IMG/VR virus record: IMGVR_UViG_3300047403_000111
Coordinates: 1 to 42,606 of that record
DNA: 42,606 bases
Reading direction: 5' to 3' (one strand)
From: a virus
Taxonomy: Duplodnaviria > Caudoviricetes
The notes beneath the pieces are model-generated. The model made no database searches and was not told the origin of the DNA. It saw only the letters and a program-made list of their open reading frames with translations. The translations under genes were made by a program, and so were the position numbers. Shown in pieces: positions 2-42,451 of the stretch. Within the stretch, counting starts at the first letter, position 1. Each line of letters opens with the position of its first letter.

Positions 2-727
2 TTTCCCGATGCCGACATCATCGTCGGTGGATTTCCCTGTCAAGACGTATCACGAGCCGGGAAGCGCGCCGGAATTACCGGCGAGCGTTCAGGACTCTAC
101 CGGGAATTGGTGCGAGCCATTCGCGTGGTTCGACCGAAATACGCGATCCTGGAGACCGTGGCAGCGTTGCTTGGAAACGGGATGGGAGACGTTCTCGGGG
201 ACCTGGCCGAGGGCGGGGATTGTGTTGAATGGGATTGCGTTCCGGCGTGCGCCCTCGGCGCCCCTCACCAGAGAGATAGGATATGGATTGTTGCCCACGC
301 CGATAGCGAACGACGCGGAGAAACGAGGCAATTTCGACATCGACCGAAGCAGGTGCCTAACGGGAGAATTGAGACGCATGACGCTTCCGGCGCCACGAGC
401 ATCGGATGCGAACAAGGGCGGACGCGGCGATTTCCTGACAGTTTTGCGGGGGTACGAGACGCGACACGCCGGGACATTACCGACGCCGACATCAAGGGAT
501 TGGCGGAACGGAAAGGCGAGTTTGGACACACACAACAGGAACAGCAGGCCGTTAAACGAGACACTCACTGGGATGTCTGGCAATCGCAGTGGCCAAGTGA
601 ACCCGCGCTTCTTGGAGTGGATGATGGGATATCCAATCGGGTGGACTGCGTGCGCGCCCTCGGAAACTCCTTTATCCCGCAAATTCCGGAAATGATTGGC
701 CGCGCCATCATGGAAGCCGCGCAATGA
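2..727 (+). CDS. C5 cytosine DNA methyltransferase, catalytic (alpha) frame, 5'-truncated by the window edge
   Basis: Frame open from nt 2 reads DIIVGGFPCQDVS (motif IV, PC), AILETV (motif VI, normally ENV), PHQRDRIWIVA (motif VIII) and RALGNS (motif X). No motif IX in this frame. Confidence 0.92.
   Translation, partial: FPDADIIVGGFPCQDVSRAGKRAGITGERSGLYRELVRAIRVVRPKYAILETVAALLGNGMGDVLGDLAEGGDCVEWDCVPACALGAPHQRDRIWIVAHADSERRGETRQFRHRPKQVPNGRIETHDASGATSIGCEQGRTRRFPDSFAGVRDATRRDITDADIKGLAERKGEFGHTQQEQQAVKRDTHWDVWQSQWPSEPALLGVDDGISNRVDCVRALGNSFIPQIPEMIGRAIMEAAQ
9..695 (+). CDS. Overprinted methyltransferase partner (beta-type) polypeptide carrying motif IX
   Basis: 228-aa ORF inside the MTase in the +1 frame. 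It has three LP(T/A)PxxxD repeats and C-terminal VNPRFLEWMMGYPIGWT resembling motif IX. The frame is open to the window edge, so the true start may be upstream. Confidence 0.7.
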   Translation: MPTSSSVDFPVKTYHEPGSAPELPASVQDSTGNWCEPFAWFDRNTRSWRPWQRCLETGWETFSGTWPRAGIVLNGIAFRRAPSAPLTREIGYGLLPTPIANDAEKRGNFDIDRSRCLTGELRRMTLPAPRASDANKGGRGDFLTVLRGYETRHAGTLPTPTSRDWRNGKASLDTHNRNSRPLNETLTGMSGNRSGQVNPRFLEWMMGYPIGWTACAPSETPLSRKFRK

Positions 728-882
728 CCCGCCGATACCCTGAACACGACTTCCAGGCGGCGGCGCACGTCTTTCTGTGCCGTGCGCTGCCCCAGGGATT
801 GCACTGGGGTACCGATCACGCCGGGGCACGATCTCCGGCGGCTGGCGCCAGGCTCAAGCGGCGCGGCATCGTCCCTGGAATC
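724..882 (+). repeat. Copy 1 of 159-nt end repeat (copy 2 at 42448-42606)
   Basis: First 140 nt identical; 5 mismatches in the last 19 nt. Confidence 0.97.
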
Positions 883-35067: not shown

Positions 35068-36003
35068 TCATCCCTCACCGGCTGGCGGGGCTTTTTGCTG
35101 TTCTGGCTCAGCAGCAGCCCCGCCGTCATCGGCAGCCACCGCAAACCGCGCATAAGCCGCCCCCAGCATCTCGTTCAACTGAAGCTTGATCTCGAGTGGC
35201 GCATCGCGGAGAGCCTTGGCTACCAGCGGATCGTCGGCCACGTTCGCCACATCGTCGGTGCTGAAACATGCGGCCAGCTTGTCGCGGACAATCTCACGCA
35301 CAGTGCGCTTCGGCGGCGCGGTGTTGACGGGTTCGGGTGGGGATGCCGGGCGAACAACATCCCCACCCTGCGCGGCGTGGTCATCGGTCGGGGTGGGCAG
35401 ATGCCCCGCTTTCCCCACGCTCGCGGTCTCGGCTTTGGCGCAAAACGGCTCCGGCGTTACTGTAATCGTCGTGCCCTTGAAATTGTCCGCCGGAATGTCC
35501 TGTGCTTCCTCGGCGCTGATAAGCCCGCGCAGCGCGTCGGGAAAAGCATCACGCAATGCAAAGCCGCGCGCCCGCATCTGCATCATCCGCTTTGGATATT
35601 GCTGCCACGGGCCGGCCTTCCCCAGCAAACCCGCGCGCTTGGCGTCTTCCGCCGTGAATGTCACCGTGACCGGATGATCGCCTTTCCGGTGGACTTCGCA
35701 CACGGCGCGCATCTTGTCGCCCTCGCCGTCGCACGTTTCCTTGATGCCCCCCCATGCCGGATGCATCTTGCAAAGCGCCAACATGGCATCGCCCCAAAGG
35801 CTGGGACGGCCATTCACAACCGCAATATTCTGTAGCGCCTGCATCGGCGCGAGGCCGACTTCGCTGCCCATCTGCACTGCAAGCATCACGTCCTCGACCT
35901 TGCCGCGATAGGCAGCCGGCACCATGGACGATTTCGCGGCCATCTGGGCAAAAATCGAGAGTTGCTCAAAGTTCTGTGGGCGTAGGACGATATCGTTTGC
36001 CAT
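35068..36003 (-). CDS. RecT/Redbeta-like single-strand annealing protein
   Basis: G.EVGL.PMQALQNI.VVNGRP..W, A..AGL..K.GPW..YP.RM...RA..FA.RD.FPD.L.G. Confidence 0.85.
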   Translation of the reverse strand: MANDIVLRPQNFEQLSIFAQMAAKSSMVPAAYRGKVEDVMLAVQMGSEVGLAPMQALQNIAVVNGRPSLWGDAMLALCKMHPAWGGIKETCDGEGDKMRAVCEVHRKGDHPVTVTFTAEDAKRAGLLGKAGPWQQYPKRMMQMRARGFALRDAFPDALRGLISAEEAQDIPADNFKGTTITVTPEPFCAKAETASVGKAGHLPTPTDDHAAQGGDVVRPASPPEPVNTAPPKRTVREIVRDKLAACFSTDDVANVADDPLVAKALRDAPLEIKLQLNEMLGAAYARFAVAADDGGAAAEPEQQKAPPAGEG

Positions 36004-39200: not shown

Positions 39201-39364
39201 GCGCGGTTACGTTTGCCCTGGTGATCCTGCTGAACGGCGCACCCACGACGGTCTATTTCCCGTCCCGTGATCTGTGTGAGGCTGGCGCACGGGATCTGCT
39301 GGGGAAATTCCGGCCGTCCGGCCCGCACATCTGCATCCCAGTCACAGGAGCAGCAACGCGATGA
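39197..39364 (+). CDS. Small hypothetical protein, 55 aa
   Basis: MSAVTFALVILL..F.S..LCE..CIP; ATGA coupling. Confidence 0.6.
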   Translation: MSAVTFALVILLNGAPTTVYFPSRDLCEAGARDLLGKFRPSGPHICIPVTGAATR

Positions 39365-39468
39365 CCCCTCTGCATCACCGCTACACCGGCATCCCGCGTC
39401 TGCGCGATGTCCTGGTCTGGATTACTGTCGTGGGGTTTGTGTGGGCTATCGGGTGGTGGATGATATGA
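39361..39468 (+). CDS. 35-aa TM peptide (not in the ORF track)
   Basis: AGGAG RBS; MTPLHHRYTGIPRLRDVLVWITVVGFVWAIGWWMI; ATGA coupling on both sides. Confidence 0.55.
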   Translation: MTPLHHRYTGIPRLRDVLVWITVVGFVWAIGWWMI

Positions 39469-40838
39469 ACGACGAATATCTGAAATTCCTGGCGAGCAAA
39501 ACGCCTATTGCTCAATCAGTCGGGTTTGAGCCACGGCCGCCGAGCCAATGGTTGTTTGATTTTCAAAAGGCCGCCGTTGAAACGTGCATTCGTCGCGGAA
39601 GATCAGCACTGTTTCTGGATACTGGTCTTGGTAAGACATTGTGCGAGCTTGAATTTGCCGCGCAATGTGCCGCCTATTCCGATGGGCCGGCGCTAATCCT
39701 GACGCCGCTCGCTGTTGCACGTCAGATCGAGGCCGAGGCATTGCGGTTTGGGTATGCCGCGAAGGTTATTCGCGATCAATCGGAAGCATGGGGCCTGGTC
39801 AATATCTGCAACTATGACCGGCTGGATCGTCTCGATCCATCGTTCTATTCGTGCATCGTGCTGGATGAATCCTCGATCCTAAAGAATTTCACCGGCAAGA
39901 CAACGCGCGCGCTTATCGATGCGTTCAAGGATACTCCGTATCGTCTAGCCGCGACTGCCACGCCAGCGCCGAATGATTTCATCGAGTTTGGCACTCATTC
40001 CGAATTTCTCGGCATCATGCCGCAAGCTGACATGCTCATCCGGTGGTTTCTTAACGATACGGCGAACACGGGAACGTGGCGGCTAAAAGGGCACGCGGTT
40101 ACGCCTTTCTGGGACTGGATGGCGTCATGGGCGATCATGGCAGAAAGCCCGGAAGATTTGGGATTTGATGGGTCACGCTTTGTCTTGCCGGAAATGAAAG
40201 TCATCCGGCACCAGGCTATGGGTGATGTGCGCGCGCCCGCTGGTTCCCTGTTTATTGAGGACGTGTCCGCGACGAATATGCACGACCTAAAGAGGCAGAC
40301 GACATCCGTTCGATCGGACAAAGTAGCGGACTTGGTAAACTCCGAACCGGATCATTCGTGGGTTGTTTGGTGCGATACTGACTATGAATCGGATGCTCTG
40401 GCAAAAAGGCTACCAGATGCTGTAGAGGTTCGCGGGTCCCATCCCGTAGATAAAAAAGAGGCTGGGCTTGCTGCGTTTGCCTCTGGTGAAAAACGCATCA
40501 TTATTACCAAGCCAAGCGTTGCTGGAATGGGATTGAATTGGCAGCATGCCGACCGGATGGCATTCGTGGGTCGCACGTTTTCCTACGAAGCTTGGTATCA
40601 GGCTGTTCGCCGATGCTGGCGTTTCGGTCAGACTCGCCCCGTTCATGTGCATTTGATCGTTGCTGAGGGGGAAGATCAGATTGGGCGCGTAATTGAACGC
40701 AAGGCTGATGATCATGCGGCGATGAAGCAAGCAATGCGGGATGCTTCGCGCCGGAACATGGGGCGCGAAAGCGCGGTCAAAGTTCCATATAATCCAACAC
40801 ACGACGGGAGGCTGCCATCATGGATATTCGCTGCTTGA
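39465..40838 (+). CDS. SNF2-like SF2 helicase/ATPase
   Basis: DTGLGKT, VLDESS, TATPAPND, GMGLNWQ, QAVRRCWRFGQ. Confidence 0.9.
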   Translation: MNDEYLKFLASKTPIAQSVGFEPRPPSQWLFDFQKAAVETCIRRGRSALFLDTGLGKTLCELEFAAQCAAYSDGPALILTPLAVARQIEAEALRFGYAAKVIRDQSEAWGLVNICNYDRLDRLDPSFYSCIVLDESSILKNFTGKTTRALIDAFKDTPYRLAATATPAPNDFIEFGTHSEFLGIMPQADMLIRWFLNDTANTGTWRLKGHAVTPFWDWMASWAIMAESPEDLGFDGSRFVLPEMKVIRHQAMGDVRAPAGSLFIEDVSATNMHDLKRQTTSVRSDKVADLVNSEPDHSWVVWCDTDYESDALAKRLPDAVEVRGSHPVDKKEAGLAAFASGEKRIIITKPSVAGMGLNWQHADRMAFVGRTFSYEAWYQAVRRCWRFGQTRPVHVHLIVAEGEDQIGRVIERKADDHAAMKQAMRDASRRNMGRESAVKVPYNPTHDGRLPSWIFAA

Positions 40839-41713
40839 ACGACGCGCACGGCGAGGAATGGACGGCGTATCATGGTGATTGCGTCTCCGTGGTTGCGCAA
40901 TTGCCGGACAATTCCGTGGGTTTTTCAGTTTACTCGCCGCCGTTCTCTAACTTATTCGTCTACTCGGATAGCCTGGCGGACATGGGGAACAGCGCCAGCG
41001 ATGCGGAGTTCATGACGCAATATGGATTTTTGCTGCGTGATCTTGCGCGCGTCACGAAGCCGGGTAGGCTGTCTGCCGTTCATTGTTCCGATCTTCCCCT
41101 GACAAAATGGAAGGATGGCATGATCGGCATAAAGGATTTGTCCGGTGATATCATCCGCGCGCATCAAGACGCCGGATGGGTTCTTCATTCTCGAGTGACG
41201 ATCTGGAAATGTCCTGTGGTGGAAATGACCCGCACCAAGGCGCTCGGGTTGCTTTACAAGCAATTGCAAAAGGACAGCACGCGCAGCAGGCAGGGCATGG
41301 CGGATTATTTGCTCGTATTCCGTGCGCCGGGTGAAAACGAGGAACCGGTAGGACAGGACAGCAACAAGTTTCCTGTTGATCAATGGCAGCAATGGGCATC
41401 CCCCGTATGGATGGACATTCGCCAGACGAACACGCTTAACGCAACCGTAGTGCGCCAGGACGCTGACGAAAAACATCTATGCCCGCTGCAATTGGATCTG
41501 ATTGAGCGGTGCCTTGTTCTGTGGAGCAACCCCGGAGACATCGTGCTTTCCCCATTCATGGGGATCGGAAGCGAGGGCGTGATGTCTATTCGTAACAAGC
41601 GCAAATTTGTTGGCGTGGAACTGAAAGAGGCTTACTGGATGCAAGCGTGTAAGCATCTAACTGACGAGGAACGTCATGCGCCATCTCTGTTTGACGTGAT
41701 GGCAGCCGACTAA
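40820..41713 (+). CDS. N4-C/N6-A DNA methyltransferase (beta order)
   Basis: GDC..SVYSPPF (motif IV) precedes H.CP and VLSPFMGIGS (motif I). Confidence 0.9.
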   Translation: MDIRCLNDAHGEEWTAYHGDCVSVVAQLPDNSVGFSVYSPPFSNLFVYSDSLADMGNSASDAEFMTQYGFLLRDLARVTKPGRLSAVHCSDLPLTKWKDGMIGIKDLSGDIIRAHQDAGWVLHSRVTIWKCPVVEMTRTKALGLLYKQLQKDSTRSRQGMADYLLVFRAPGENEEPVGQDSNKFPVDQWQQWASPVWMDIRQTNTLNATVVRQDADEKHLCPLQLDLIERCLVLWSNPGDIVLSPFMGIGSEGVMSIRNKRKFVGVELKEAYWMQACKHLTDEERHAPSLFDVMAAD

Positions 41714-42254: not shown

Positions 42255-42451
42255 CCGACACCCCCACCCCGGAACAACTCTCCATCATCGAGCGCCTACT
42301 CGACGCGCACGCCGCTGGCGAGGACGTAACAATTTGGGAGGATGAGTTTCTGACCGACCTGGGCGAGCGATATGAGAAATATGGTCTTGATCTGCGCGTC
42401 TCGGACCGCCAGTGGGAGAGCATCGAGAAGATGGCGGAGAAGTATTTATGA
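42251..42451 (+). CDS. Acidic hypothetical protein, 66 aa
   Basis: AAGGA RBS; WE.EF..DL..R....S..Q...I..M pattern. Confidence 0.7.
   Translation: MTDTPTPEQLSIIERLLDAHAAGEDVTIWEDEFLTDLGERYEKYGLDLRVSDRQWESIEKMAEKYL

Follow-up and report, generated by a model that had tools for sequence, protein, structure and literature searches.

Here, we found that two overlapping reading frames in a tailed phage genome are both open and both under selection, and we consider it likely, at a probability of about 0.78, that they encode two chains of a single orphan C5 methyltransferase whose target recognition resides on the second chain. The window, that is the whole stretch of 42,606 nucleotides analysed, carries the first chain (alpha), the likely catalytic half, in frame 2 and the second chain (beta) in the +1 frame relative to it. 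The number and type of the short modules in beta vary between relatives, the gene forms an accessory cassette, and the locus is one member of a large family. Beyond these observations, we infer translation of both frames, binding, activity, module specificity and an anti-restriction role. The two-chain reading had been proposed in an earlier note on this DNA and is backed here by stop-free +1 frames in homologues, by selection that switches between frames, by locked codons and by a co-fold of the two chains. The features are as follows:

2..727 (+): alpha chain frame, catalytic half; about 296 aa in full, with the 5' part outside the window
9..695 (+): beta chain ORF, +1 frame, 228 aa, with the ATG at 9 as candidate start; PHROG 1008
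29..43 (+): motif IV (GFPCQ, with the catalytic Cys), alpha frame; invariant in 108/108 loci
152..160 (+): motif VI, alpha frame, E-T-V versus E-N-V in the family (N in 108/108 loci)
192..242 (+): beta hairpin segment FSGTWPRAGIVLNGIAF, conserved; overlaps alpha motif VII, with predicted pairing to an alpha strand
257..286 (+): motif VIII (GAPHQRDRIW; HQRDRIW at about 266-286), alpha frame
291..383 (+): module 1 (cluster type 3), beta frame; the slot most variable among close relatives
384..476 (+): module 2 (cluster type 1), beta frame
477..596 (+): module 3 (cluster type 0), beta frame, running into motif IX
597..647 (+): motif IX-like helix VNPRFLEWMMGYPIGWT, beta frame; overlying alpha codons locked
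653..712 (+): motif X (RALGNS...; LGN at 659), alpha frame
724..882 (+): start of a downstream nuclease-like gene, whose ATGA overlaps the alpha stop; a second copy lies at the contig end
42445..42448 (+): site where the 889-nt methyltransferase cassette is inserted; the window end is the cassette-less allele

The motifs IV, VI, VIII and X that the earlier note had assigned to frame 2 are indeed all read within the open frame 2-727. Counting motif I from a loose end of the contig and motif VI as E-T-V, the C5 motifs I-VIII occur in order with the catalytic PC. The gene starts outside the window: 166 nt with motifs I-III are missing before position 1. As read from the loose end, this stretch starts with a GTG and motif I, which lie 55 codons ahead of position 2; the reading covers 30 of its 166 letters, and motif I is in the alpha frame if the other 136 hold no indel. 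The Pfam DNA_methylase family (PF00145) matches at 81 bits against a cut-off of 22, over alpha residues 1-117 only. Neither motif IX nor a conserved variable region is present in alpha, whose motif X is preceded by an unconserved, stop-free filler. Motifs IX and X are both present at the locus, X in frame 2 and the IX-like helix in the +1 frame, the latter identified not by a library match but by its position and by its place before motif X in a single-chain relative (L100) and in gp6 of mycobacteriophage Corndog.

No stop interrupts the +1 frame between 3 and 695, and the ORF described at 9-695 is open throughout its 228 aa. Motif IX, previously placed at 591-647, stands as a helix but not in its boundary: VNP...GWT spans 597-647, and a start at 591 adds two residues. 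Fifteen further beta residues follow the helix. The prediction that gene callers would miss one chain holds for the records of phages S-H1 and Che9d, which list alpha only, but not in general, as beta matches PHROG 1008 (E 3e-30) and has 199 homologues among called proteins. Both S-H1 (L194) and Che9d (L280) are cultured phages with the layout of the window, in which beta lies unannotated within an annotated methylase gene, and offer ready test systems.

Is an open +1 frame expected by chance? In synonymous-codon shuffles of the window's alpha, at most one stop, with the ORF's own stop inside the counted range, occurred in 1.4% of 2000 trials, and nulls based on GC3 left the frame open in 0-0.3%. 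The +1 frames of 13 other long genes of the window contain 2.3-5.4 stops per 100 codons, with a longest open run of 188 codons. We then turned to homologues, for which the earlier note had proposed that stop codons should be absent. Three scans gave 191 viral loci (192 with the window); 146 were parsed for motifs IV, VI and X, of which 124 are distinct by exact sequence, and the 46 unparsed loci were dropped. From motif IV + 60 nt to motif X - 30 nt, the +1 frame is stop-free in 121 of the 124 distinct loci and the +2 frame in none (14 vs 1060 stops), these being counts over related loci and hence non-independent events. The exceptions are L036 and L056, with one stop each, and the single-chain L100. 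Among loci found by the alpha query alone, the frame is open in 50 of 53, with 1.5 expected. Open +1 frames span loci of 41-69% G+C, and single-chain control methylases have none (0/10; 6-40 stops each). The layout also extends to cellular genomes: 80 loci from many phyla, collected with a beta profile, comprise 60 with the window layout, 2 and 4 with other splits, 4 apparently frameshifted and 10 unparsed. As to a start for beta, a +1 ATG before motif IV + 150 nt is absent in five of the 124 loci. Shine-Dalgarno-like matches precede the ATG in 98/222 cases in the open +1 frame versus 22/106 in the +2 frame, counts to which the Gly-rich motifs of alpha contribute such matches.

Along the gene, the wobble position changes from one frame to the other. 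Among nine close loci, it is the alpha third position that differs in motifs IV-V, VII-VIII and X, and the beta third position in the modules and motif IX. For motifs IV-V, the differences per site are 0.12/0.42/0.19, peaking at the alpha third position; for module type 1 they are 0.22/0.11/0.51, peaking at the beta third position, with an identity of 0.77 in beta and 0.43 in alpha. This beta pattern was seen in all nine module types tested, and over the modules alpha identity is 0.16-0.58 vs 0.56-0.86 for beta, which argues for selection on beta there. Synonymous codons of alpha vary freely in motifs I-V (108 loci). The suppression of synonymous change that the earlier note had suggested looking for was found over the hairpin, where alpha codons are locked (GCC in 74/75), and over motif IX (GGG in 103/103, CCC in 78/78 and GTG in 75/75). 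Thus, a beta frame with motif IX is nested inside alpha and is under selection, as in the M.EcoHK31I type of arrangement.

A co-fold of both chains, likewise suggested earlier, was run with the alpha of a relative (L003, 58% identical) as stand-in. It scored 0.84 with the window's beta, and the best of three controls 0.14; the mark for a pass is reached by 116/157 solved pairs and 2/215 mismatched pairs, and the runs had at least 59% contact agreement and a partner pLDDT of at least 54. In the confident contacts, beta 65-75 is predicted to run antiparallel to alpha 136-141, motif IX to pack on motif X, and beta 212-217 to lie on alpha 37-41, although one contact patch crosses DNA common to both frames. 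Among the modules, only the head of the last one (residue 157) is in confident contact. The pass may reflect likeness to solved methylases, as halves of split enzymes can. Beta alone folds poorly (pTM 0.39), with no Foldseek match at E 0.001 and a best VIA Z of 2.5. The L100 model leaves the modules unfolded (pLDDT under 50), and its alignment to M.HhaI covers only some 190 residues of the large domain. Library searches with beta gave no Pfam or NCBIfam family, its profiles found no C5 methylase in PDB or Pfam, and its PDB sequence search returned at most four unrelated weak matches.

The relatives redistribute the same parts in four split types and one single-chain form. In type A, that of the window, alpha holds I-VIII and X, and beta the hairpin, modules and IX. 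Alpha of type B (Corndog gp7/gp6, L083, L089, L110, L259 and L265) ends after VIII, and X is on beta. In type C, motif I is fused in frame to beta (41/123 homologous proteins, 22 of them with one junction); at the DNA level this covers L112 and L113 alone, and indel errors may account for some of the others. Type D (L241, L256, L258 and L273, all actinobacterial) has IX and X on alpha and keeps the hairpin and modules in the +1 frame. Finally, L100 has, in a single frame and in this order, I-VIII, the hairpin motif, four modules, IX, the pre-X segment of alpha and X, so that hairpin and modules occupy the place of the target-recognition region of C5 enzymes (region as given in the accessible part of PMC3404938). 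Across these forms, the constant cargo of the +1 chain is the hairpin together with the modules. In a quick tree of 93 cores (94 columns; 8/89 branches well supported), which cannot give the ancestral state, L100 and the other splits sit among type A rows. Motif I of L200 is located in alpha. In L112 (1078-2198), L113 (1108-2084), P0036, P0041 and P0052, motif I-II is fused to beta via a conserved G-I-x-A-L-N-x-L-L junction, and the catalytic frame would begin at the ATG of the W-P codons or by frameshift.

The three LP(T/A)PxxxD units reported for the window are present as LPTPIAND (291), LPAPRASD (384) and LPTPTSRD (477), with spacings of 93 and 93 nt. In a DNA alignment, only 25 of 100 columns are invariant among them, and a recent tandem duplication is therefore ruled out. 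As a property of the family, the exact 31-aa period did not survive: the median length of internal modules is 33 aa, with only 17/179 at 31 aa, so that the 93-nt period of the window is incidental. Variable repeat number, in turn, was confirmed. In the 115 of 124 loci that were parsed, one to six modules occur in 28, 26, 38, 16, 6 and 1 loci, with a pattern that over-splits at times. The 294 modules form 170 clusters, 22 of which have at least three members. The array of the window occurs in none of nine relatives at 74-85% core identity, whose first slot holds eight different module types and turns over fastest. The module types of the window turn up again in genes at 37-64% core identity, also in other slots, and certain types can be internal as well as last modules (type 1 is first in L047, type 4 stands alone in L164). 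Such a pattern is one of exchange rather than of simple expansion.

Do the modules recognise DNA? The proposal of expandable recognition modules stands as far as number and combinations vary; recognition itself is suggested by position and by a weak motif likeness. Tandem exchangeable units between VIII and IX, as in enzymes of the M.SPR type, were found, and in L100 they lie in frame between these motifs. A matrix of 283 module heads has its best site inside the variable region in 8/10 single-chain controls, often at the T-L site, a weak signal because this region makes up about half of each protein and none is significant alone (P 0.05-0.68). That each module reads one target of its own is close to an even bet. 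L016 (349-1809) carries an insert in the beta frame, across which alpha is open (431 codons counted); from its YVAGLLDGEG motif we take it to be a LAGLIDADG-like homing endonuclease segment. Streptococcus phage SpSL1 (L283:1001-2083) and Lactococcus phage D7893 (L285:1001-2227) encode single-chain methylases whose main frame includes three to four P-T-L-like units in tandem. In a C5 methylase of a Vibrio plasmid (L276:292-1419), X follows soon after VIII and a T-x-x-A-K-D site lies beyond X, which suggests a permuted recognition region.

The +1 frame could be a mere shadow of alpha in G+C-rich DNA, with alpha working alone or the gene decaying. The codon usage of alpha does itself lower the number of +1 stops (about three expected per locus), and the window allele departs from consensus at motif VI; however, the frame is open down to 41% G+C, the wobble moves to the beta third position, alpha codons are locked, and alpha is without motif IX and a conserved variable region, which makes this explanation very improbable. 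The two frames could also be joined by ribosomal frameshifting or slippage with no separate start for beta, a shift after III giving a product of I-III plus beta and two shifts a single chain. Motif I is already fused to beta in the type C proteins with their shared junction, five loci lack an early +1 ATG, and Cresawn et al. left a frameshift or hop possible for Corndog (as stated in the accessible part of PMC4351075). Against this, Shine-Dalgarno-like signals are enriched upstream of +1 ATGs, and an early shift still yields two chains. The selected hairpin overlaps motifs VII-VIII, and a single chain shifted after VIII would lack it, which favours two chains. We regard such a joining of the frames as improbable.

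A closer competitor accepts two chains with one specificity, where only the last module reads DNA and the upstream ones are a spare reservoir or linkers, which recombination would bring into the active slot. The single module in 28/115 parsed loci, the rapid turnover of the first slot and the confident contacts confined to the last module's head are what one would expect from it. On the other hand, selection acts at the protein level on the beta frame of internal module types 1, 3, 8, 10 and 11, types 1 and 4 occur both internally and last, and in Bacillus phage enzymes tandem recognition domains give several targets (PMC8936443, PMC12707154, in the accessible text), so that we judge it rather unlikely. 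Somewhat short of even odds, in turn, we place the broadest version of our own reading, a large phage family with the overprinted specificity subunit of a multispecific methyltransferase, in which a library of modules of about 33 aa, open in two frames, is shuffled between phages, each protecting one site, and I-III, IX and X are mobile between chains.

On the two-chain reading, alpha (I-VIII, stop-free filler and X) would bind SAM and catalyse, as its family motifs suggest. Both chains would be translated separately from one message, beta from its own ATG near motif IV, and then assemble. Beta is predicted to extend the alpha sheet by its hairpin and to place motif IX against motif X; it would thereby complete the fold and present one to six PT(P/L)-type modules that read DNA. 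Each module would be a target-recognition unit swapped between phages by recombination, and the whole cassette would move as well. Methylation of one or more sites would then likely protect the phage from host restriction.

M.EcoHK31I is part of a restriction-modification system, unlike the window gene, an accessory cassette of a phage for which no cognate nuclease was seen. According to the accessible parts of two reports (PMC2836561, PMC3404938), this E. coli enzyme (YGGCCR) has I-VIII and X on alpha and IX on a beta chain read in another frame inside alpha, and both chains are required; the nested layout invoked as precedent in the earlier note is thereby confirmed. Likewise, the window's beta lies wholly in another frame within alpha and carries IX, and alpha keeps X. 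In M.EcoHK31I, however, the recognition domain is on alpha (PMC2836561, PMC3404938, same parts), where the window's alpha has filler and its beta a module array. Another natural two-chain C5 methyltransferase, M.AquI, is split into I-VIII and IX-X (PMC3404938). This is the split of the Corndog-type relatives, while the window leaves X on alpha; M.AquI is not described as dual-coded in the accessible part of that article (PMC3404938).

For Corndog, a cluster O mycobacteriophage, Cresawn et al. reported coding potential in both frames of gp7/gp6 and similar arrangements in other phages, among them phiH (PMC4351075). In the accessible part of that paper, the choice between two products, a frameshift and a hop is undecided, no peptides were found for Corndog, and the modules are not described (PMC4351075). 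In our analysis gp6, read in the +1 frame across gp7, combines the FSGTWP..G.MRNG hairpin with a PTP module and IX, which places it in the same family; unlike the window, Corndog alpha ends after VIII and X is in the +1 frame.

Each recognition unit of the Bacillus multispecific enzymes contains a TL-type dipeptide. The window gene resembles them as an orphan phage gene with tandem exchangeable units and a conserved T-L-like dipeptide, named as such for M.HhaI (PMC2790894). M.SPR, M.phi3TI and M.H2I of Bacillus phages are orphan enzymes with tandem exchangeable units between VIII and IX (PMC8936443, PMC12707154, in the accessible text). These are single chains with proven specificities, whereas the units of the window are PTP-type, of about 33 aa, on an overprinted chain and of putative specificity; a single polypeptide of the M.SPR type is not what the window encodes, with modules and motifs IV-VIII in different frames. 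Orphan phage methylases have been reviewed as protection from host restriction (PMC12707154, in the part accessible). Taken together, the window enzyme is best read as an orphan methylase of two chains that resembles M.EcoHK31I in layout and the Bacillus multispecific enzymes in its module array. Our literature search, whose coverage was thin for subscription journals, primary papers of 1988-1996 and supplements, returned no description of the family-wide overlap or of the modules.

If this reading is true, only one half of the enzyme is described in thousands of annotations of phage methylases, and an annotated gene cloned after codon recoding would no longer give a working enzyme. These genes offer a long conserved same-strand overlap with selection alternating between frames, and a natural library of short candidate DNA-recognition modules. 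The question of Corndog gp6/gp7 becomes testable in the cultured phages Che9d, Corndog and S-H1, and an anti-restriction role could be examined by comparing the naturally occurring forms with and without the cassette.

The record is a 42.6-kb tailed phage with a terminase, a head-tail adaptor, tail proteins, a RecT-like protein and a second methyltransferase, and was found near-whole in two freshwater metagenome runs; the window itself may derive from either. The last 159 nt of the contig repeat 724-882 at 97%. In run X1, a 42,157-nt contig carries 889 letters between 42445 and 42448, and in run X2 a direct join (depth 22.4) coexists with a branch into the methyltransferase (depth 11.1); the genome is therefore circular, and the methyltransferase gene is an accessory cassette of 889 nt that part of the population lacks. 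The same data led us to reject a terminal repeat as explanation of the duplicated end. Stop-start overlaps are preserved on both sides of the cassette. The downstream nuclease-like gene was considered as a cognate restriction enzyme and rejected, since it is also in the cassette-less allele and its PHROG 93 match is weak. Between the X1 cassette contig and the window there are 12 differences immediately upstream of the cassette (42313-42397) and 5 immediately downstream (864-879), as expected if the cassette entered by recombination in the flanking genes.

Alleles also differ within the gene. Position 156 is C in the window, X2 and X4, giving E-T-V in alpha and R-P-W in beta, and A in X1 and X3, giving consensus residues in both frames; the exchange changes N/T in alpha motif VI and T/P in beta. 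The window's own allele, with its departure from consensus at motif VI, may be weak. A helicase-like gene followed by the second DNA methyltransferase (PHROG 67) lies at 39267-41713, so that the phage has a methylase even without the cassette. At 35068-36003 on the minus strand, a RecT-like single-strand annealing protein (PHROG 561) is encoded, a possible agent of module and cassette exchange.
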